A model generated the notes under the pieces. It was not told the DNA's origin. It saw only the letters and a list, made by a program, of their open reading frames with translations, and made no database searches. Below are positions 4,656-37,846 of a DNA stretch of 64,000 nucleotides, in pieces. Both the position numbers and the translations under genes were made by a program. Numbering within the stretch: the first letter of the stretch is position 1; each line of letters starts with the position of its first letter. The stretch is from Pseudogymnoascus verrucosus (taxonomy: Eukaryota), in the NCBI GenBank assembly GCA_001662655.1, contig KV460220.1; one strand, given 5' to 3'.

Positions 4656-5249
4656 GGTTGCGGTTGTGTGTGTGTGTAGTTGGGAGATTGAGAGTGTGGA
4701 TTGATAGCTGGAGGAAGGTATGTTAGTGAATGACTCTTTGAAAGGCGGAGTTGAGATGAGGTGGTGGGTGAGGTTGGAGACGTACTGGTTGGTATTCACA
4801 GTACACCTGGTGTAACTGATACTCTCACTCGGCAGGTTAAGCAGTAGCAAGTAGTAATAGCAACAGTAATAAACAATCTCAGACTCTTAATTCAATCCGT
4901 AAAACAGAAGTAAATTGGAGTAGATTATTGACAGCTTATATCAGGGTCTGAAAAGGTGCGGATAGATGGGATGTGCAGTTTTACCCAGCAGTTGGTCCCC
5001 CAAGCAACCTTTTGTACGCTCGTGGTTGCCATAATGATGTGGCAGGGCGAGAACTCGGTTCGCTGGGAAACGGAGGAGGCTGACACGCGAGGCTGGGATG
5101 TGGGGTTGGCCCGGCGCTGGTGGTTGGTACGGGCGGGCGCTAACTTGGTTAGTGGATTTTCACGTGATGAAAGGTACCCCATTAAAATGATAAGTAGAGG
5201 GATTTAGGTGCGTTTGTAGTGTATATGAGGTATAAAAAGTAAATGAGTG

Positions 5250-5347
5250 TATAGAGTAAGATATAAACCTAGTGTATAATATATAATGTTTTAGAATTAA
5301 TTCTAAAACATTATATATTATATACTAGGTTTATATCTTACTTTATA
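5250..5347. repeat. 98-bp near-perfect AT-rich palindrome centred on GAATTAATTC
   Basis: The arms pair about 5298/5299. The two mismatches (5254/5343, 5274/5323) are G opposite T, compatible with transitions. Confidence 0.85.
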
Positions 5348-5830
5348 GGATATTTTACTTATATAACATTATAGTAAATCTCTTTAGATTATATTTAAAC
5401 CTAGGGTAGGGGGTTAGTATATAAAGATAATAATAGTTCTTACCCTAGAGGAGATTAAGAAAGAAATGTAGGATTTGTTTAAATAAGGGTAGACTAATGT
5501 TACGGCTAAAACATGCAACCCATATGCTGCAGGATAGAATAATAAGGTAAAATAGCTTGCGGCTAATTGGTAGCAGGAAATGGACGCAGAGATTGTAGGT
5601 AGCTTAGTTAATAAAGGCACCTTTAGGAAAAGGTACCTTTCTTAGAAGGTACCTGTTAGAAGAGGGGTGCCTATTAGGAAAGGCACCTGTGTAGAGCAAG
5701 GTGCCTCCTTAGAAAGGCACCTATGGGAATCGGTACCTATAATAAGTATAGCACCTCTTATAGGACCTACACGTAATTAGATTAGTAGGAATAGTAAGAA
5801 TAGTTAGAGAGTTTACTATTCTAACTATTC

Positions 5831-5873
5831 NNNNNNNNNNNNNNNNNNNNNNNNNNNNNNNNNNNNNNNNNNN
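5831..5873. other. Assembly gap (43 N) inside an LTR-A copy
   Basis: Run of N. The complete LTR-A copies are 529-530 bp, so the gap is undersized. Confidence 0.99.
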
Positions 5874-21800: not shown

Positions 21801-24800
21801 GTTAGTGTAGAGTTGTCCCTTAGGTCCTTTTTTCTCTAAGTACTCATTAACGAAGAACTCGACCTAGTTGAAGGCAGCCCCTCTTAAAAGGGCTATAGCC
21901 TAAAGGACTTAGTTAGCTTCATTCTTAAGCATGTAAGCATTAAATCTAATGTACAAGTTGCACTTAAGGAGAAAAGCCTTAAGCTTGTGTCGTTCTCTAC
22001 TGTAGGGCTTAGGCATCTAAACCTTAACGACTTATTTATAGGCTAGGGCCGTTTCTATAGTAGTAGAGACCGCTAGGGGGGCTGTAGGTTCTAGGGACTT
22101 ACTCTTTCTAACGGAAGACATGTTGCTTTGTATATAAGCTGGTACCTCGTAGAAGTGGTGCTTAAAGTGTAACGCTAGGTCTTAACTATAAGACTTATAG
22201 AGGTTTCATTACGTTAGTTTACTTAATAGAGGAGGTAGGGGATTAGACATAGAGGCTTTCGTAAAACACGTTATAGTATATAATAAAATACTATATTAAG
22301 TTGAGCANNNNNNNNNNNNNNNNNNNNNNNNNNNNNNNNNNNNNNTATTCTCACTATTCCTACTAATCCAATTACATGTGTGTCCTATAAGAGGTGCTAT
22401 ACTTATTATAGGCACTGATTCCTATAGGTGCCTTCCTAAGGAGGCACCTTGCTCTACATAGGTGCCTTTCCTAATAGGCACCTCTCCTTTGCTAGGTACC
22501 TCCTAAGAAAGGTACCTTTCCCTAGAGGTGCCCTTATTAACTAAGCTACCTACAGTCTCTACGTCCATTTCCTGCTACTAATTAGCTATAAGCTATTTTA
22601 CCTTATTATTCCATCTTATAGCATATGGGTTGTATGTCTTAGCTATAACATATGTGCTATAGAAGGCAGCATGCAACTATATGTAGTCGCTAAGGTACAA
22701 TAGCAATACCTCTAAGTAATGATTAACTTAGGAGTAACGGGCAACTTTATAACAAAGAAAGTAGTAGACACTTAAGGTTTTAAAACGTAATTAAAAGCTA
22801 ACCTATACCTACTAATAGTTGTAGATAGAGAACCTATCTCAACTAACAAGGGAATGGTAACCTATAAAATAGTCCTATTAGAAATGGTTATGCTACGTAG
22901 ACATAAGGAAACGATCTAATTTAACATTATATACATAGACAATTATGTATGTATCCTTAGTGTACTGTAGCTTAGGAAACATAATCCCTAGATCGACTAG
23001 TAGAACGAGAGAATTATAATGAGCTAGTGCATGTGTAAACAACGAATAGACACGCTATAATAGGAGAAACCCTCCTAGGGCTAACGTAAGGTATGTACGA
23101 CCTCTATAGAGCCTAGTGACCTAGCCTAGGCACCCTTACTAACGGGTATACTAGTAGAGTATAAGGAGTACAAGCAACTATTCTAGGAAGGCCCTAAAAA
23201 CGAGGCGCTTCCTAAGCACTAACTATAGGATTATGTAATACCATTAGAAGAAGGAAAGAGTCTACCGTTTAGACTAATATACTAGATGTTAGTAGACGAA
23301 CTAAAACTACTAAAGGAGTATATTAACGATAACCTTAAGAAAGGATTTATTAGACCCTCTAAGTCTCCTATAGGAAGCCTAATGTTATAGGTTCCTAAGA
23401 AGGATGGAAGTAAACGACCCTACGTAGACTATTAAGCATTAAACAACATAACGATAAAGGATTAATACGCCTTACTGTTAATTAATGAGTTACACGATAG
23501 ATTCTAAGGAGCTAAGATCTTTACTAAGCTAGATCTATATAGCGCATACAACCTAATCTAGATAGCTAACAGCAAGGAGTAGAAAACAGCATTCTACACC
23601 TACTATAGTCTATTTAAATATTAAGTCATGCCCTTTAGGCTAACTAACGCCCCTATGTCTATACAACGCTTAATGAATGATGCGCTATATAAATACCTAG
23701 ATATATTCACTATCGTTTACTTAGACGATATACTAGTATACTTAGTAAGTAAGGACGAACATAAACGGCATGTTAAGCTTATCCTAGAAAAGCTAAAGGA
23801 GTACAACCTACTATTAAAGCTAGAGAAGTGTAAGTTCTATAAAAGCTAAGTTAAGTTCTTAGGCTACATTATTAGAACGCATGGCATTAAGATGGACTAA
23901 GCAAAGGTTATAGTAGTGTTAGAATGGCTAACACTAACTATAGTTAAGGAAGTATAAGCCTTCCTAGGCTTTGCTAACTTCTACTGTTGGTTTATTACAG
24001 GATATTCTAAGGTAGCTCAACTACTTATAGAGCTCACTAGGAAGGACCTTACGTTTAAATAGACAGACAAAGTAGAGGCTACCTTCTAGGAACTTAAGAT
24101 GAAGTTTATAGAGGCACCTATCCTTACTATATTTAACCCTATAAAGAAGATCGTCCTTAAAACGGACGCTTCTAATTTCGTGATTAAAGCATGTCTAAAT
24201 TAGCTAGGCGAGAACGGTAAGTTTAAACTAATTGCATACTACTCTAGGAAACTGTCACCTATAGAGCTTAACTATGACATCTATAACAAGGAGCTACTAG
24301 CTATTATCGTTGCCTTTAAGTAGTAGCGCGTATATCTTAAGGGATCTACCTATACTATGTAAGTGTAGATAGATTATAAGAACCTTATATACTTCACTAC
24401 AACTAAGGTTTTAAACTGTAGATAAGTCTGCTAGGCAGAAACCCTTACAGCCTACAACTTTATAATAACCTATTATAAAGGCTCTAAGAATGTAAGAGCA
24501 GATGCTCTTAGCAGAAGGACTAACTACATTAGCCTAAAGGAAGAAAGACCTAGAGCAATATTAAAGAAGACAGACGTAGGAATGCAATACAACGAACTAC
24601 TAGCTACAATCGCCATCGTAGAAGACACAAAACTTAAGTAGAGACTTAGGAACGCTTATGCAACAGACGAAATAGCAAAGTAAACCCTAAACAAAGTTAA
24701 AGGAAACTTCTCTATTAACGAATAAGGGCTAATCTAATTTAAAGGATTAGTGTATGTCCTAAGTTAAATGAGACGCCTACTAGTATAAGAACAACACTCG

Positions 24801-30978: not shown

Positions 30979-31448
30979 AAAGCCCCTACGAGGCTAAAAA
31001 TAGCCTCGCAGGAACATCTAAGGAACCACACGCAAAATTGATGGATGTATTAGCGAAGCCATTATCATATTGAAAACAACTTACAAGTATCCCTACTGCT
31101 ATAAATGGCTTCGCAGGGACTTCTCGGTCGCCCGCATAAATTAACTAGGTATAGCGCAAGTCCCCGCGACGCCATTTTGGCTTTGCGGATACTTTGAGGG
31201 ACCAAAACGACAAGAGGTATCAGCGAAACCGTCTCAGTATGAAAAGCTACTTATAAGTATCCGCGCCACTACTTTTGGCTTCGCGAAGACTTTTGGGAAT
31301 CTACACCAAAAATGTGCAAGTACAGCACAAGTCCCCGTGACGTCAAAAATAGCTTCGCGTGGACTTTCAGGGAACGTGCAGCAAAATGGGGACAAGTCCC
31401 AGCGAAGCCATTTTTGTGCCTGTGGATAATTTGGATGGCGCACCCCTG
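30979..31448. repeat. Array of about 6 degenerate palindromic ~38-bp units, ending in a possible TIR (CAGGGGTGCG on the minus strand at 31448)
   Basis: Units start near 30980, 31085, 31158, 31255, 31329 and 31394. Approximate consensus AAGTCCCYGCGAAGCCA-(T/A)4-TGGCTTCGCRGGGACTT. Confidence 0.6.
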
Positions 31449-32431: not shown

Positions 32432-32687
32432 TGATGGCGTGGGGGGCGACTACAATGGGAATGGCTATGTGGCTTACGACTGTCCGTAGAACAATACAGG
32501 TACGATATACGTAATATGTGATTTGCAAATTGTGTATTGATATGGACTTATGGAGTCGTCAATTGGGTGGGACCGGAGGCGACACCTTTGTCAAGACGGC
32601 TTCACACAGAAAAGTTATTCAATCTCACATCATGCACCGCTTGTGGACAGCTCGGGCAGCGAGATTGAATAACTCGGACAAATAAAA

Positions 32688-32855
32688 CTACAAAAACGCC
32701 TCTCTCATCCGCTTGAGCACATCACTCTCCGACTCTGCCAGTCGCTGGGCCTCTAGGGCTGCTGTGCTAATCTTGGCCCATAGAACATCCCGCTTCTCCT
32801 CTTCCTCGGCAAGCTCGTGGTCTTCATTTGCGAGTTTGCTTTTGACAGTAGACAT
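32688..32855 (-). CDS. Possible 55-aa acidic helical peptide or gene remnant
   Basis: MSTVKSKLANEDHELAEEEEKRDVLWAKISTAALEAQRLAESESDVLKRMREAFL has protein-like composition, with no other support. Confidence 0.3.
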   Translation of the reverse strand: MSTVKSKLANEDHELAEEEEKRDVLWAKISTAALEAQRLAESESDVLKRMREAFL

Positions 32856-32985
32856 TCACACATTGCAGGAATAATTTCGCATAATGAAAACATTTTTTTT
32901 TGTCAACGTTCTCTAGCAATATCCCTGGCGCGCAAGCAACCCTCCCCCTACACCCAGCGCAAAACACAACGCAATCTACACAGCC

Positions 32986-33060
32986 GACTTATGGAGTCAC
33001 CCGGTGGAAGGGCTGACAAAAGCCCTTTGTAGGTCCTTCCACCGGGCGACTCCATAAGTC
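32986..33060 (-). repeat. 75-nt hairpin H1, 2 nt after the stop codon of orphan gene A
   Basis: GACTTATGGAGTC...GACTCCATAAGTC, a 26-bp outer stem with one G-U on the minus strand; GGGCT loop on the minus strand. Confidence 0.95.
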
Positions 33061-33062
33061 TA

Positions 33063-34120
33063 TCAGGCGTAATTAGATGCGTCCCATCCTGTCTTCTTGA
33101 CAGTGGTGGTCCCACCAATTGATCTCGTTCGAGAGTGTGTGTCGAAACCGTCGGCTGCCGGAAGTCGTTTCAAGTTCTTGGAAACCTCACCAGCTGGCCC
33201 TCCACCAGGCATAATATAGTAATTATTTCGCACGAACATACGCCCAATCCCGTTCTTATCAATGAAATCCTTGTCGTCTCCTTCCTTCACAGAGATAACA
33301 AATCGGAGGAAGTCATATATGATATGACAGGTCGTAAATCTAAGATATTTACGGAGGTCTATCCGCAATTCCTCTTCCTGCAGGTTGGCGCGTACAGCAT
33401 TATGGAACACAAAGTTGTAAGAGACCGCCTTAAATTGGTCAGAGAACATGAAGTGAATGTGCTCCGGCCGAATGTACTGATTGATAGTACTGATGCGGTG
33501 CAGCTCATCTTCGTGTTGCATCTGCTGAAAAAAATCTCCGGAGTTCATCGCGATGTCAATGACAGAGCAAGACAGGAGGAACCCACGCTCTAACGTCGCA
33601 CGGGTGATTGCGGATGCGTGCTCCTTTAGCTTAGTCTCGTAGAACGCAAACACAGTATCCCTCTTGCCAAACTTAGTAACATGCTTCGGGAAGCAATTGC
33701 GGATTTCACTGGCGGGCATCGAATGGTGCATTAACTCGATCGCTTTCGCAAGCTTGAGGCTGGTCGCTGGCACCGCGATGCTCACGTTCGGCTCCACCGG
33801 GGCTGCCGCTTCTTCTCCATTGCCGAGCCAGTTTCCTGCGATATAGTGGGCCATGGGGATGTAGGTGGGAATATCCAGCTCGTTGTTCTGTTTGATGTTA
33901 GTATGTAGTTTAGTTGGCAATGGAGACATTATCTTACCAGGTTCACTGCGAGGCTTCCGTCAATCTTTGGATCGGACCACACCCCTGCTTTCTTCGATGC
34001 TTGGAGCCTCGTGGCTGTTTTATCGAACAGTTCCTTGGAGGCAAATACGGCATTCTTGTCGAGTTCTGGTTCCTGTCTCGATTCGATCACTTTCAATGGG
34101 GAGTTGGGAGGAGTCGCCAT
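33063..34120 (-). CDS. Orphan protein A, 335 aa; exons 34120-33938 and 33887-33063
   Basis: A 50-nt phase-0 intron, 33937-33888 (GTAAGA...TACTAAC...CAG), joins the 63-aa and 288-aa ORFs. No family recognised. Confidence 0.8.
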
Positions 34121-34429
34121 CTATGTTTGAACTCGTAAGTATAGAACATCTAATAAAAACAATATATATAGCTTACCTTAGACGTGTTTGGGTGATTTGG
34201 GGCAGTGAGGGCTTCTGGAATATTGCGGACAGAGGTTGTTGTGTTGTGGACAATTATTACGAGTAGAAGTTGTAAGCGGGGGTTGTTGTGGGTGGGCTGG
34301 AGGGGGGGTCTAAGCGGGTGAATTTATCACTTAAGTGAATTTGTCTTTGGATAGGGACCAGTGCATACCAATATTCACAGAATAGCACCACCTCTAAAGA
34401 AAAAAAATCCAATCCAATTCATTTACATC

Positions 34430-35410
34430 ATGTACAGTCTTACAAACATTCGAGCGATTACAAACGGGGAGATTTGGGACTTCCCAAACTTCAAATTCGA
34501 ACCATTCAATCCTCTCGACCAGAAGAACGCCCAGAGACTCATATCGCAATACGCCAAAAAGTTGGCCAAGGTAATTTACTTGACAACCCATGATTGCCGA
34601 CAAGAGGAGATCGAAGGATGCCTCCCAATGGAGATTGTCCTGCAGGTGTTCGACGCCAAGACCTGGGAAAGAAACTTGAAGGGGATCCGAGCAGAGCTGC
34701 ACCGGGCCATGCTCACAACTGCACTGGCGGATAAAATTATCCCCAGATGGAAAAATAGGCCAGATTACCCGGTGCAGTCAGGGGCAGCCGAGGGCAAGGA
34801 GGAGGAGAAGGAGAAGGAAGAGAGGATGAGGACCTGGGAGAGGTTTGTGCACGAAGACCCGGATGCAGTAAGATGGTTCGTGGCCCCATTGTGGGAGAGC
34901 GTCGATTTTGACGAAATCTCGTGCGCCGACACTCCCAGGATGGTGACCCTGCACGAATGGATTGCAGCATGCTTGGTTGCGGCGGTTGAGAAGTCCTTCT
35001 CCCTGCAGAGAGGCGCGCGGGACCCAGCCACGGGGAAGATCAAGGGGGGGAACCAGCCCGCCTTTATTATGAACAGGGAATGGGAGGAAATGCCAGACCA
35101 GGAGCCATGGAAGACTCGGCTGGCTGGGATCGCCGTCCCACTGCGCTACAACTTTGGCGGTGGAAACCGTGCGCCCATGAAGCCCATGCCGTCGGTATTC
35201 AATAACTCCGGATTCGCCCAGACACCGCGCAAGACGTCTGGGGGCGGCCAGAGTCTCCCGGGATCCAAAGAGAAGAAAAGGAAGAAGGATAGTCAGAAGG
35301 AGCAGGGCCACAAGAGGAGAGTGAGCAGGTCGGGCGGGGTGATTAGGCAGAACATCATTGTCATGGGAGAGGAGGAGGGGGAGGAGGAGGGGGAGGAGGA
35401 GGAGAAGTAG
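34430..35410 (+). CDS. Orphan protein B, 326 aa, distant paralog of A, with a basic NLS-like patch and acidic tail
   Basis: Intronless ORF, ATG with A at -3. KLAKVIYLTTHDCRQEEIEGCLP aligns with A's KLAKAIELMHHSMPASEIRNCFP. Confidence 0.8.
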   Translation: MYSLTNIRAITNGEIWDFPNFKFEPFNPLDQKNAQRLISQYAKKLAKVIYLTTHDCRQEEIEGCLPMEIVLQVFDAKTWERNLKGIRAELHRAMLTTALADKIIPRWKNRPDYPVQSGAAEGKEEEKEKEERMRTWERFVHEDPDAVRWFVAPLWESVDFDEISCADTPRMVTLHEWIAACLVAAVEKSFSLQRGARDPATGKIKGGNQPAFIMNREWEEMPDQEPWKTRLAGIAVPLRYNFGGGNRAPMKPMPSVFNNSGFAQTPRKTSGGGQSLPGSKEKKRKKDSQKEQGHKRRVSRSGGVIRQNIIVMGEEEGEEEGEEEEK

Positions 35411-35593
35411 GGGAGATCGACAATGTGGCGGCAGAGGAACCGGGAAACGTCCACCGCCGCATCGTCGATCTCGTCCGCGAGTACGATGAGCCGAGGGAGA
35501 GATGGGCCGAGTGTCATAGATAGTTATTCTGAACAATGACAACGTTTTTAACCTGCATCTCATCTACTAATATTACTTATCTCATCGCGATTC

Positions 35594-35668
35594 TACTTAT
35601 GGAGTCGCACGGTGGAAAGGCCGTCGAAGGGCTTTCGCAAGCCTTTCCACCGTGCGACTCCATAAGTA
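35594..35668 (+). repeat. 75-nt hairpin H2, downstream of orphan gene B
   Basis: TACTTATGGAGTCG...CGACTCCATAAGTA, a perfect 28-bp outer stem with GGGCT loop; 61/75 identical to the reverse complement of H1. Confidence 0.95.
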
Positions 35669-35945
35669 ACGGGCGCGAGTGGTTAGAGCTTTCGCTGTTA
35701 GTAACCCATTATCAAACACGGAAAGGGACTCACAATCTTGGACACCCGCCACAGCCATGACCGATCCCCCGGCCCTCAACACATTTCACGTTTCAACGGA
35801 AAGAGGTTTCGGATATGGAATATGCTTGAAGAATGACTGAAAAACGATTCTCAAGTTTAATATATACACACTCGCCCCATATCGATGATGTCGTCCCCAT
35901 TGTTAAACATACTTGACACTCGACCCCAGTTCACCCCCGACCACC

Positions 35946-36695
35946 TCAGTCTAAGTCCGCCTCAGAAGAATCCCCCCCCGTGCCACTCCCTCTATCCCCC
36001 GTGCCGCTCCCTCCTGGCCCATCTTTTCGCCCCCTGCTGACAATGTGTAGCAAATTCAGGAGCAGGGTGTTGGTATATTTTTGTTGAGTAAGAATGTCCT
36101 GTTGGGTGGTGGCGTATGCTTTCCAGAACGCGTCGGTCATCCTCTGATGCTCTCGGGTCGCTTTGATTTCAATATCAACGGCTGCGCGTGCAGATTGGGC
36201 TTCTCTGCGTTCTACTTCGGCTCTCCCCCGCTCGCTCGCCGCCGCTCCCCGCTCACTCGCCGCCGCTCCCCGTTCGGCCGCCGCCCTCCCCCGCTCGCTG
36301 GCCGCTGCTCCCCGCTCGTTGGCCGCCCTCCCCCGCTCACTGGCCGCTGCTCCCCACTCGTTGGCCGCCCTCTCCCGCTCGCCGGCTGCTGCTCCTCGTT
36401 CGGCTGCCGCAGCTCCTCGTTCGGCTGCCGCAGCTCCTCTCTCCGTCCCCGCATCTCTCCGTTCGGCCACCACTGCCGCTGCCTCCGTAGTCGCAGCTGC
36501 TCTCTCTGCAGTTACTACTGGCGGAGTAAGCAAGTCTGCCGCCCATGTACCCGCGAACCATCTCCGGATAAACGCAGTTGAGGATCCAAACATGATCCCT
36601 ATGTGGACAATTATCCCGATGATAAGAGCAGCATACTGCCACTCTAGACTTGGCGCCTGCGATTCGGTAGGTGTTGGCTTAATTGTTGTAGTCAT
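35946..36695 (-). CDS. Membrane-anchored protein with 7-aa ERGAAAA-type tandem repeats (predicted coiled coil), about 249 aa
   Basis: ATG 36695 in ACAATG context, a hydrophobic segment YAALIIGIIVHIGIMFG, and about 12 copies of a 21-nt repeat at about 36200-36460. Confidence 0.7.
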   Translation of the reverse strand: MTTTIKPTPTESQAPSLEWQYAALIIGIIVHIGIMFGSSTAFIRRWFAGTWAADLLTPPVVTAERAAATTEAAAVVAERRDAGTERGAAAAERGAAAAERGAAAGERERAANEWGAAASERGRAANERGAAASERGRAAAERGAAASERGAAASERGRAEVERREAQSARAAVDIEIKATREHQRMTDAFWKAYATTQQDILTQQKYTNTLLLNLLHIVSRGRKDGPGGSGTGDRGSGTGGDSSEADLD

Positions 36696-36829
36696 TGTTA
36701 ATGTATGTGTAGTAAAGTAAGCTGTTCGTCCTCTTTGTTTGTCTTCTTCAACTTCTTCAGACCACATAGTTGGGTTTTGAATGCATGGCGAGACACTTAA
36801 AAAGGGGGAAGGAACGACCGTATACCTCA

Positions 36830-37846
36830 TTATATCAGCGCACTTTTAAACATTTCTGCTTTATATTTCGGTGTCAGCAGCTGTATAATATCAATATCTC
36901 CTCCCTCATATGTAGCTTTAATAGATCCTGCGTCAAATGGTACTGGATCGCCCCAATAACCATGTACATGACTTCTATATTTGATGTCTAGCGGGTTCCG
37001 GCCCTCGCCCAAGTCCAACCAACACGTTATTATCAACGCTACGCCATGACCAAAAAAGTCCATGGCGTCAATCTGGATCTCAGTTGGGCAGGTGTCGCAT
37101 TGGAACAGGCCCGCGCAAGTTAGGCAGTTGAGCTGTGGATTGTTCCAATGGCTTGCTCGACATGTCAACCTCCTCCTTAATTCTATCGATTGTCCATACG
37201 GCACTACAAAATGCCAGTGTGGACAAATGTTTGCATAGACTTTTTTAGGGACCTCTACCTTCTTCCCAACCGGGAGAAGGAGCCAGATTTGATGGCGTAG
37301 TAAAAACCTGCCGTCTGTAATTCGGGGGGTAAACTCCTCGTGGTTCACATGCTTAGTGTCGGAAACACTGCGTCTTGGAAAACTGTAGAATCTAGATAGT
37401 GAAGATAGTAGCTTGCCGTAGTCAAGGCCGCTACGATACAGCTTCATAACCAAGAAAAATGTGACAGAGGTGAATCCTCTGCATATATGCCAATGGACAG
37501 ATGATGCACAATCTGCCATCGTGCATGGTGATCGACTATTTACTTGCTGTGCTCGACTATGGAGAATCTCACAATCAAGGCACAGGATGTGCCGTGGTAG
37601 ATCTCTCTGTAGGATATCCAGGAAAACTGGTCTATCGAGTCCATCTTGCTGATCTTCCCGAAGCCGATCAAGGTACTGGCTCCCCAGAATAAACCAGACC
37701 GAACGACAGGTCAAAGTAAACGAGACGGCGGCTGAGAGAGGGAGGAAGGTAGCTATCGACTTGATAATCTCGACGGGTAACTGCTTTAAAAGCGCTCGTG
37801 TGTCTGTCTTCCCGGTTTGGAAATGGGATGCTGGTGGGGACGCCAT
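36830..37846 (-). CDS. F-box domain protein, 338 aa
   Basis: N-terminal LLKQLPVEIIKSIATFLP...F.LTCR F-box motif, CxxC motifs, and a C-terminal C..CPTE....WLDLG pattern seen in fungal F-box proteins. Confidence 0.8.
   Translation of the reverse strand: MASPPASHFQTGKTDTRALLKQLPVEIIKSIATFLPLSAAVSFTLTCRSVWFILGSQYLDRLREDQQDGLDRPVFLDILQRDLPRHILCLDCEILHSRAQQVNSRSPCTMADCASSVHWHICRGFTSVTFFLVMKLYRSGLDYGKLLSSLSRFYSFPRRSVSDTKHVNHEEFTPRITDGRFLLRHQIWLLLPVGKKVEVPKKVYANICPHWHFVVPYGQSIELRRRLTCRASHWNNPQLNCLTCAGLFQCDTCPTEIQIDAMDFFGHGVALIITCWLDLGEGRNPLDIKYRSHVHGYWGDPVPFDAGSIKATYEGGDIDIIQLLTPKYKAEMFKSALI

Follow-up and report, generated by a model that had tools for sequence, protein, structure and literature searches.

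Among described systems, the closest in form to the locus analysed here are the MITE and foldback repeats of fungi, such as Fusarium mimp and Neurospora Guest, and the PIF/Harbinger elements, two-ORF cut-and-paste transposons that encode a transposase and a DNA-binding partner. The REP, Correia and ERIC sequences of bacteria can be compared by analogy only. The locus lies in a 64-kb stretch of DNA (the window) from the soil fungus Pseudogymnoascus verrucosus and consists of a divergent, intact gene pair, A and B, flanked by two 75-nt palindromes, H1 and H2. Like the fungal elements, H1 and H2 are short and non-coding, with inverted arms, sharp boundaries and unrelated flanks; they sit beside genes and a transposon island, a solo-arm remnant is found nearby, and H2 may carry a TA duplication. 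They differ in being entirely one hairpin with a 5-nt loop, in the absence of a duplication at H1, in their few and local copies, and in that the window holds no autonomous partner with matching ends. With the bacterial palindromes they share a stable structure a few bases from a stop codon and the presence of several unrelated hairpin families in one region; here, however, the host is eukaryotic and its genes are spliced, a transposase that binds the hairpins is not evident, and intrinsic termination is inapplicable. The A/B cassette recalls PIF/Harbinger in that two genes stand between inverted ends and B weakly matches a DNA-binding helical fold, whereas it lacks a DDE domain or other Pfam family and a 3-bp target duplication, and its ends are themselves palindromes. 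We tentatively regard H1 and H2 as a small non-coding foldback (MITE-like) repeat with symmetric arms, its copies known from the 64-kb window alone, and give this reading slightly less than even weight. The locus is laid out as follows, in window coordinates.

32545..32559, plus strand: solo-arm remnant of the H1/H2 family, matching the start of the arm at 14 of 15 positions
32613..32674, no strand assigned: hairpin Q, a 14-bp perfect stem, unrelated in sequence to H1/H2
32986..33060, minus strand: hairpin H1, a near-perfect 75-nt palindrome that starts 2 nt past the gene A stop codon
33063..33887, minus strand: gene A exon 2, 274 codons plus the stop at 33063-33065
33888..33937, minus strand: gene A intron, 50 nt, GT..AG, phase 0, from genomic letters compared with protein VE01_04970
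33938..34120, minus strand: gene A exon 1, 61 codons
34121..34429, no strand assigned: divergent spacer, 309 bp from the start codon of A to the start codon of B
34430..35410, plus strand: gene B, an ORF of 326 codons plus stop, with no Pfam match
35413..35472, no strand assigned: hairpin H3, 60 nt, 17 of 19 stem positions paired, 2 nt past the B stop
35594..35668, plus strand: hairpin H2, a 75-nt palindrome 183 nt past the B stop

An earlier, sequence-only reading of this DNA had described much of this arrangement, and its coordinates for H1 and H2 are exact; the divergent orientation across a 309-bp spacer and the intactness of both reading frames are likewise as it reported. Gene A encodes 335 aa in two exons, its translation being 100% identical to the annotated protein VE01_04970, and B is a 326-codon ORF for which the protein database searched contains no identical entry. 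A and B are real, intact, lineage-restricted genes. Relatives of A are known only from Pseudogymnoascus and include a paralogue in the same species, VE01_04416. B had been called an orphan, a description that no longer holds, as it has 67 relatives at E≤0.001; those that are named all belong to Leotiomycetes, among them relatives in Glarea, Oculimacula, Cudoniella and Phialocephala, and VKM F-4513 has two members. Other genes of the A or B family are V496_06216, V498_03964 and VE00_03611-03614. Linkage of the two families recurs in two other Pseudogymnoascus genomes, F-4517, in which the first 38 residues of the A-orthologue model are an antisense reading of B, and WSF 3629, in which an A-family and a B-family gene are three locus tags apart on the same contig; the pair is therefore a conserved neighbourhood.

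The H1 and H2 stem-loops fold at -55.8 to -60.6 kcal/mol (z -11.3 to -13.8), values matched by none of 200 shuffles. Their 35-nt arms are 89-91% complementary within the 75-nt element, and a perfect outer stem of 26-28 bp is kept in both copies. Membership among MITE and foldback elements was judged by terminal inverted repeats, small size and lack of coding capacity, and H1 and H2 show all three. An origin from a tRNA or SINE was rejected, with no tRNA gene in the 30-37 kb interval. When the reverse complement of H1 is set against H2, 61 of 75 positions are identical (81%) and both carry the loop GGGCT, while the flanks are unrelated, all as the sequence-only reading had it. Also borne out are the compensatory swaps on which that reading placed weight: at pairs 1/75, 16/60, 25/51 and 33/43 both partners differ between the copies and still pair, 26 of the 35 stem pairs have the same letters in H1 and H2, and the sole one-sided change, at pair 14/62, is G-U in one copy and G-C in the other (G-C to G-U on the A-sense strand).

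Covariation of this kind invites the explanation that selection maintains the hairpin as a structural element, present beside A and B alike owing to co-regulation of the pair. Such an element could be a 3'-UTR RNA stem-loop (acting in stability, in 3'-end formation or as a Dicer substrate), a DNA cruciform or a binding site. We consider this unlikely, although several observations are what it would predict. With 14 differences placed randomly, at least four compensatory pairs arose in 0.056% of 100,000 simulations (P about 6e-4), and selection for pairing fits the four two-sided changes as well as DNA-level symmetry does, which counts against the repeat reading; however, the alignment holds two sequences only, and 84 of 500 shuffles reached the same covariation. 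The perfect outer stem in both copies and the lone one-sided change, which leaves a G-U pair on the A-sense strand, are also in keeping with selection. At both H1 and H2, by contrast, folding is 2.8 kcal/mol more favourable for the antisense than for the sense strand, so that nothing points to selection on a sense-strand RNA. Searches of Rfam 15 with H1 and H2 returned no family at the gathering threshold, the best score being 30.6 bits against the 69 required for mir-5918, a generic hairpin match that falls on both strands of H2.

The placement of the hairpins bears on the same question. The sequence-only reading had them in gene-sense orientation, one after each gene. The loop is indeed identical when they are compared in that orientation, which a selected element would explain, but the assignment depends on a 5-nt loop, and within it on three positions (61 matches in gene-sense orientation, 58/73 in the opposite one). 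Similarly, H1 begins only 2 nt past the A stop, as expected of an element that belongs to the gene, and the conserved A-B linkage in F-4517 and WSF 3629 would suit co-regulation, yet H2 is 183 nt past the B stop, between the converging 3' ends of B and an ORF at 35946-36830 on the minus strand. Hairpins of other sequence directly follow the stops of B (H3) and of a 55-aa ORF at 32855..32688 on the minus strand (Q, 13 nt past the stop), so that a hairpin after a stop codon is not specific to this family; and the solo arm stands outside the 3' end of any gene. The repeat reading draws support from the sharp boundaries, the unrelated flanks and the unequal stop distances. Symmetric 3' placement with the same loop orientation nevertheless counts against it, being expected of a functional element too.

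The relationship between A and B bears on a second explanation, the one adopted by the sequence-only reading, in which a single ancient inverted duplication of a gene with its 3' hairpin produced the locus, the proteins diverged and selection held the hairpin. We give this account little credence. Its mirror-symmetric arrangement is evident, and the three motif pairs cited for it are present in the same order in A and B. A BLASTP comparison of the two proteins gives 29.6 bits (pairwise E 6e-5) over 78 columns, carried by a single motif of ~25-30 residues, and since none of 3000 shuffles reached this score (the best was 28.5), the similarity is above chance; moreover, the aligned segment coincides with the motif that is best conserved in each family, and every profile used with hhalign recovers it. 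That reading had itself made paralogy depend on a significant HMM-HMM comparison, and there the claim fails: hhalign assigns probabilities of 2.4% (E 0.019), 1.4% (E 0.037) and 3.1% (E 0.014), with a match of 28 columns after deepening of the B profile alone and of 55 columns with both profiles deepened. When A was compared with 70 B-family proteins by phmmer the best E was 0.26, and in a search of the window's 1077 six-frame ORFs the A-family HMM missed B and the B-family HMM missed A. The A model, predicted from a two-sequence alignment, has a pLDDT of 34.7, too low for a comparison of folds. Paralogy of A and B is thus not established; judged by their sequences, the families may share at best one short motif, and of the two-gene module that had been proposed the conserved neighbourhood stands and the kinship is not supported.

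The relative ages of genes and hairpins point the same way. Because the B HMM finds 67 relatives but not A, any split between A and B would predate the spread of family B, and because H1 and H2 are still 61/75 identical, a likeness that unconstrained DNA so old would have lost, the hairpins would be much younger. That the hairpins are so much more alike than the proteins speaks against joint inheritance by one inverted duplication, which, with so many invariant stem pairs, would also require primary-sequence constraint on the hairpin while the proteins lost detectable similarity. Most likely the palindrome is a small repeat element rather than an inherited part of the genes, a statement that covers the 64-kb window.

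A further possibility, which we regard as improbable, is a mobile or selfish cassette of 2,683 bp in which H1 and H2 serve as terminal inverted repeats and A and B as cargo or machinery. The match of the H1 reverse complement to H2 does provide 75-bp inverted ends, although these are 19% diverged, and no target-site duplication surrounds the 2,683-bp unit at any of three boundary choices (..CACAGCC on the left, ACGGGCG.. on the right). Both families are lineage-restricted and multi-copy, as VE01_04416 and the two B members of VKM F-4513 illustrate, many of their database members are fragments on short contigs, the pair occurs together in three genomes, and the locus is at the edge of a transposon island, all of which a selfish unit might show. 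No transposase or recombinase family was detected: Pfam scans of A with two relatives, and of B with 19 relatives and then with all 39 aligned B relatives, gave no family at curated thresholds, an outcome that an enzyme of unknown type would still allow, and PDB sequence searches with the A and B profiles yielded nothing below E 0.37.

The predicted structure of B bears on the cassette from both sides. The model is confident (pLDDT 84.2) and almost all alpha-helical, unlike known transposase catalytic folds. Foldseek returned no PDB match at E≤0.001. Among 48,161 chains, the Homeo-prospero domain (PDB 1mij) is the sole match above Z 5: residues 34-235 of B share its arrangement over 136 of 139 residues, with rmsd 3.6 and 7% identity, at a Z of 7.5 that is weak, since values below about 13 are common for helical models. 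Together with a basic C-terminal tail, this match would make B a candidate DNA-binding protein. On the fullest version of the cassette, H1-A-B-H2 would be an undescribed selfish or mobile element of Leotiomycetes, its palindromic ends serving as recognition sites, with B as the predicted binder and A as a putative enzyme, and the arms would covary because the ends evolved together with the protein that binds them; this, too, strikes us as very doubtful.

For the foldback repeat that we prefer, additional copies are informative. A third, partial copy at 32545-32559, overlooked in the sequence-only reading, lies outside the cassette and on that account favours a repeat. At the margin of the transposon island, it has three hairpins of other sequence around it. 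Its local alignment score exceeds those of all 300 shuffles, its similarity fades across the following ~20 nt, and its partner arm is absent. The family in the window thus comprises two full copies and one partial copy, all within 3.1 kb, a scarcity that counts against a repeat; an unfiltered covariance model and a RIP-tolerant pattern found no further copies in the rest of the window, and RIP-mutated arm copies were not found within the transposon island. Also unfavourable is a metagenome scan with the terminal pattern of the hairpin, in which none of nine loci was related to H1/H2, seven being other sequences and two being unrelated long palindromes near contig ends. H3 was rejected as a diverged member of the family, 117 and 167 of 300 shuffles having scored at least as high. 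Hairpins with at least 14 paired bases number five in the 31.1-35.7 kb interval and none in the other 28 kb of normal-GC sequence, and twenty block shuffles contained one in total. By sequence they form no fewer than three unrelated groups, in addition to a related pair, P1/P2. The cluster adjoins an AT-rich transposon island, as might be expected of a zone in which small palindromic insertions accumulate.

Local sequence at the two copies is divided in its implications. With the element taken as 71 nt, TA..TA flanks H2, which supports a repeat; at H1 the flanks are GA..TC with no direct repeat, which does not. A in P. verrucosus has eight extra C-terminal residues relative to three orthologues, exactly where H1 abuts, a difference that hints at a remodelled gene 3' end and counts in favour of the repeat. 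The genomic setting is similarly mixed. One paper (PMC5751038) counts P. destructans as one of the Pezizomycotina that carry DNA transposons in the thousands, which is favourable, whereas Table 1 of another (PMC5750222) gives repetitive DNA in P. verrucosus as 4.60%, a repeat-poor genome, which is not.

We propose that H1 and H2 may be copies of a foldback or MITE-like element, or local duplicates of such copies. On this view the parting of the two gene families came first, and the hairpin reached, or was copied to, the 3' side of each gene only much later. It would evolve as a DNA palindrome, with arm symmetry maintained either by descent from source copies that need matching ends or by arm-to-arm correction, and by either route differences that look compensatory could accumulate between copies without an RNA function. 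The sequence itself shows the layout of the locus, the covarying arms, the third partial copy, the nearby hairpins of other sequence and the conserved A-B linkage; mobility or copying of the hairpin, its youth relative to the genes and a DNA-level cause of its symmetry are what we infer here.

If H1 and H2 are a foldback repeat, the finding is an ordinary one, one more MITE-like family, and it carries a caution: covariation between copies of a DNA palindrome is no proof of RNA structure. If instead the hairpins occur only with A and B genes across species, the locus would be either a structured element not described before or a novel type of mobile cassette; the genus includes the bat white-nose pathogen, and such a locus would merit bench work, for which a published transformation method exists (PMC6883257). 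Literature searches on hairpins, inverted repeats or MITEs in Pseudogymnoascus turned up no such element, and among the matches listed for two 11-mers of the hairpin all were unrelated, apparently primer matches. Short contigs from two soil runs match parts of A, the spacer and B at 95-100% identity in a comparison of 32900-35750, with no coverage of 32900-33090 or 35493-35750.

The gene families are useful by-products of the analysis. For B, the ESM Atlas points only weakly to two basidiomycete families, DUF6532 and DUF6698 (score 0.90, 137 shared features); DUF6532 is not among the matches listed in the Pfam scans of B and its relatives, and the literature on it held nothing relevant. Family B is thus predicted to be a well-folded protein family with neither a Pfam entry nor a clear solved fold. 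For A the ESM Atlas offered no useful neighbour. Family A, restricted to Pseudogymnoascus and repeatedly linked to family B, has invariant positions H/D/Q/H/N/R.

Two hairpins, H1 (32986-33060, 3′ of the minus-strand gene A) and H2 (35594-35668, 3′ of the plus-strand gene B), are the only occurrences of their arm pattern in the 64 kb window from Pseudogymnoascus verrucosus, against a chance expectation of 0.01. Each folds as a single 75-nt stem-loop at -55.8 to -60.6 kcal/mol (z -11.3 to -13.8), a stability that none of 200 shuffles reached. As the sequence-only reading had stated, the two are alike at 61 of 75 positions when H1 is reverse-complemented, they have the loop GGGCT in common, and their flanks are unrelated. 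That reading also placed both hairpins in the sense orientation of their genes. The common loop agrees with this, but the stem is barely oriented: on the same strand H1 and H2 are 79% identical over 73 nt, so the claim depends on three loop positions. Folding is slightly better on the antisense than on the sense strand at both copies and gives no hint of selection on a sense RNA.

Among the 35 stem pairs, 26 are invariant, four have changed on both sides with pairing kept (the compensatory swaps first reported), one has gone from G-C to G-U, and the remaining four are inner and include unpaired cells. The covariation tool's shuffle control is weak with two sequences (84/500); in a simulation with 14 random differences, at least four compensatory pairs arose in 0.056% of 100,000 trials, which indicates that the arms are not evolving independently. 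A metagenome scan for the hairpin returned nothing related to H1 or H2. Long near-perfect palindromes on two metagenome contigs (L001 135-218 and L003 1087-1172) open with the same 11-mer as H1/H2 and differ inside; each is close to the end of its contig and could be a fold-back produced in assembly.

Both genes are intact, as had been proposed, and their start codons are 309 bp apart:

34120-33938, minus strand: exon 1 of A, from the full 335-aa protein
between 33938 and 33887, minus strand: intron of A, 50 nt, GT..AG, from the full 335-aa protein
33887-33063, minus strand: exon 2 of A, from the full 335-aa protein
34430-35410, plus strand: B, an uninterrupted 326-codon ORF, from the reading of the ORF

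Exon 2 of A, translated, matches the annotated hypothetical protein VE01_04970 at 100% identity, and the full 335 residues of that protein bear out the two-exon model. The C-terminus of A (33063-33090) is 8 residues longer in P. verrucosus than in three orthologues, which stop about 8 residues earlier, and the extension directly adjoins H1, which hints at a remodelled 3′ end at this point. A protein collection searched with B held no identical entry, so that P. verrucosus has no identical B protein on record there; the closest match, at 61% identity, is from Pseudogymnoascus sp. VKM F-4246.

Sequence comparison places B in a real protein family. Among 1.84 billion representatives, a profile search picked up 67 proteins at E<=0.001, 13 of them at E<=1e-30, and the named relatives among 30 looked up are without exception Leotiomycetes (several Pseudogymnoascus strains, Oculimacula yallundae, Cudoniella acicularis, Glarea lozoyensis and Phialocephala subalpina). 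Across 39 aligned members, no Pfam family occurred in more than two and none reached its curated score. The AlphaFold model of B, built from 39 sequences, is confident (pLDDT 84.2, pTM 0.78) and combines long helices with a small beta hairpin at the N-terminus and a tail that is disordered, basic and G-rich. Foldseek found no match to it in the PDB at E<=0.001; with an exhaustive structure aligner the sole match above Z 5 was the Homeo-prospero domain 1mij (Z 7.5, rmsd 3.6, 136 of 139 residues aligned), a score that by the tool's own warning is common for helical models, and the second-best stood at Z 4.9. The A family is narrower: a profile search gave 10 proteins at E<=0.1, every named one from Pseudogymnoascus; P. 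verrucosus itself has a paralogue of A, VE01_04416, 32% identical. Pfam, the PDB and the Atlas offered no lead for A, and literature searches turned up no description of the H1/H2 hairpin or of either family.

HMM-HMM comparison, a criterion set by the sequence-only reading itself, does not support the proposal that A and B are diverged paralogs. Pairwise BLASTP gave 29.6 bits over 78 columns (E 6e-5 for the pair), a score reached by none of 3000 shuffles of B (best 28.5). Stronger methods disagreed with it. With hhalign, a 2-sequence A profile matched a 5-sequence B profile at 2.4% probability (E 0.019), A against the 39-sequence B profile fell to 1.4% (E 0.037) and 28 columns, and 12 A sequences against those 39 gave 3.1% (E 0.014, 55 columns). 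The best phmmer E between two A proteins and 70 B-family proteins was 0.26, and over the window's 1077 six-frame ORFs each family HMM found its own gene with no cross-match. What recurs is one motif, KLAK.I.L..H.....EI..C.P, the most conserved block in both families; the predicted model of A (pLDDT 34.7) is unusable for a comparison of folds. On these alignments a remote relationship, or one short module in common, is possible.

A covariance model run without filters added no members to the H1/H2 family and picked up other hairpins nearby, listed here with a third, solo copy of the H1/H2 arm:

31103-31177: hairpin P1, related to P2
31344-31416: hairpin P2, related to P1
32545-32559: solo arm, 14 of 15 bases, without a partner arm
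32613-32674: hairpin Q, 13 nt past the stop of a 55-aa ORF
35413-35472: hairpin H3, 2 nt past the stop of B

The solo arm resembles H1/H2 more closely than 300 of 300 shuffles, and P1 and P2 are unrelated to H1/H2. Where the window has normal GC, every hairpin with at least 14 paired bases, five in all, falls within 31.1-35.7 kb; the next 28 kb has none, and 20 block shuffles together produced a single one. Stable hairpins stand 2-13 nt past the stops of B (H3), the minus-strand 55-aa ORF at 32855..32688 (Q) and A (H1), in three unrelated sequence groups, and the gene-dense 28 kb on the right-hand side has no such stop-adjacent hairpin. An array of a ~20-nt motif (30980-31420; core GGCTTCGC..GGACTT, both orientations) forms P1 and P2, each ~75 nt, at the edge of an AT-rich island and may represent subterminal repeats from a DNA transposon that has since degraded. 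This island (4-32 kb, GC 35-46%), which the hairpin stretch adjoins, is full of repeated transposon fragments in a genome otherwise poor in repeats (4.60% repetitive in Table 1 of PMC5750222). Two runs of N, at 5831-5873 and 22308-22345, are assembly gaps inside it, and 5224-5373 is an AT-rich perfect-type palindrome (75+75 nt). Convergent to B, a 294-aa ORF (35946-36830, minus strand) contains about ten 21-nt tandem repeats encoding ERGAAA-type units and has no Pfam match.

The first model, an ancient duplication of gene and hairpin together, is improbable, since the hairpins are 81% identical and any A/B similarity is at the detection limit at most. The B profile detects members in other Leotiomycete genera yet misses A; the hairpins must therefore postdate any A/B split by far, unless they are under a constraint on primary sequence that is implausibly strict, given the 26 invariant pairs. 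Symmetric placement with a common loop orientation would be expected if H1 and H2 were a functional 3′ element, which we consider unlikely, and equally if they bounded a two-gene cassette as its inverted ends, which we doubt strongly; the boldest version, a new cassette with self-recognised palindromic ends, is a similarly long shot. The reading we tentatively favour is a small repeat of the foldback or MITE-like kind, or copies of such a repeat made locally, because the boundaries are sharp, a solo arm exists, the distances from the stop codons are unequal (2 nt from A to H1, 183 nt from B to H2) and other small palindromes lie beside the transposon island. Against it, the copies seen are local only and H1 has no target duplication. 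In such an element arm symmetry would arise at the DNA level, either because the two ends of the source element must suit a single binding protein or through correction of one arm by the other, and 'compensatory' pairs could then distinguish the copies even if no RNA were involved. On this most probable reading the locus is an ordinary case, a new small palindromic repeat beside two uncharacterised, lineage-restricted genes.

The pairing of A with B extends to relatives. Parts of A, of B and of the spacer between them occur at 95-99% identity in a soil metagenome run; each of the three differences listed for A is synonymous, and the seven listed for B comprise two synonymous and five nonsynonymous changes, three of these in the disordered tail, counts too small for a test. 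In WSF 3629, VE00_03611 (A family) and VE00_03614 (B family) lie three locus tags apart on one 275,991-nt contig. These data make the pair a conserved neighbourhood within the genus Pseudogymnoascus, which is expected of any neighbouring genes among congeners and is no proof of joint function. In VKM F-4517, the first 38 residues of the A orthologue V498_03964 are 68% identical to the antisense translation of B (E 4e-15), which puts a B orthologue divergently upstream of A there too; part of the antisense strand of that B orthologue stands in the public record as exon 1 of the A orthologue, apparently an annotation error.
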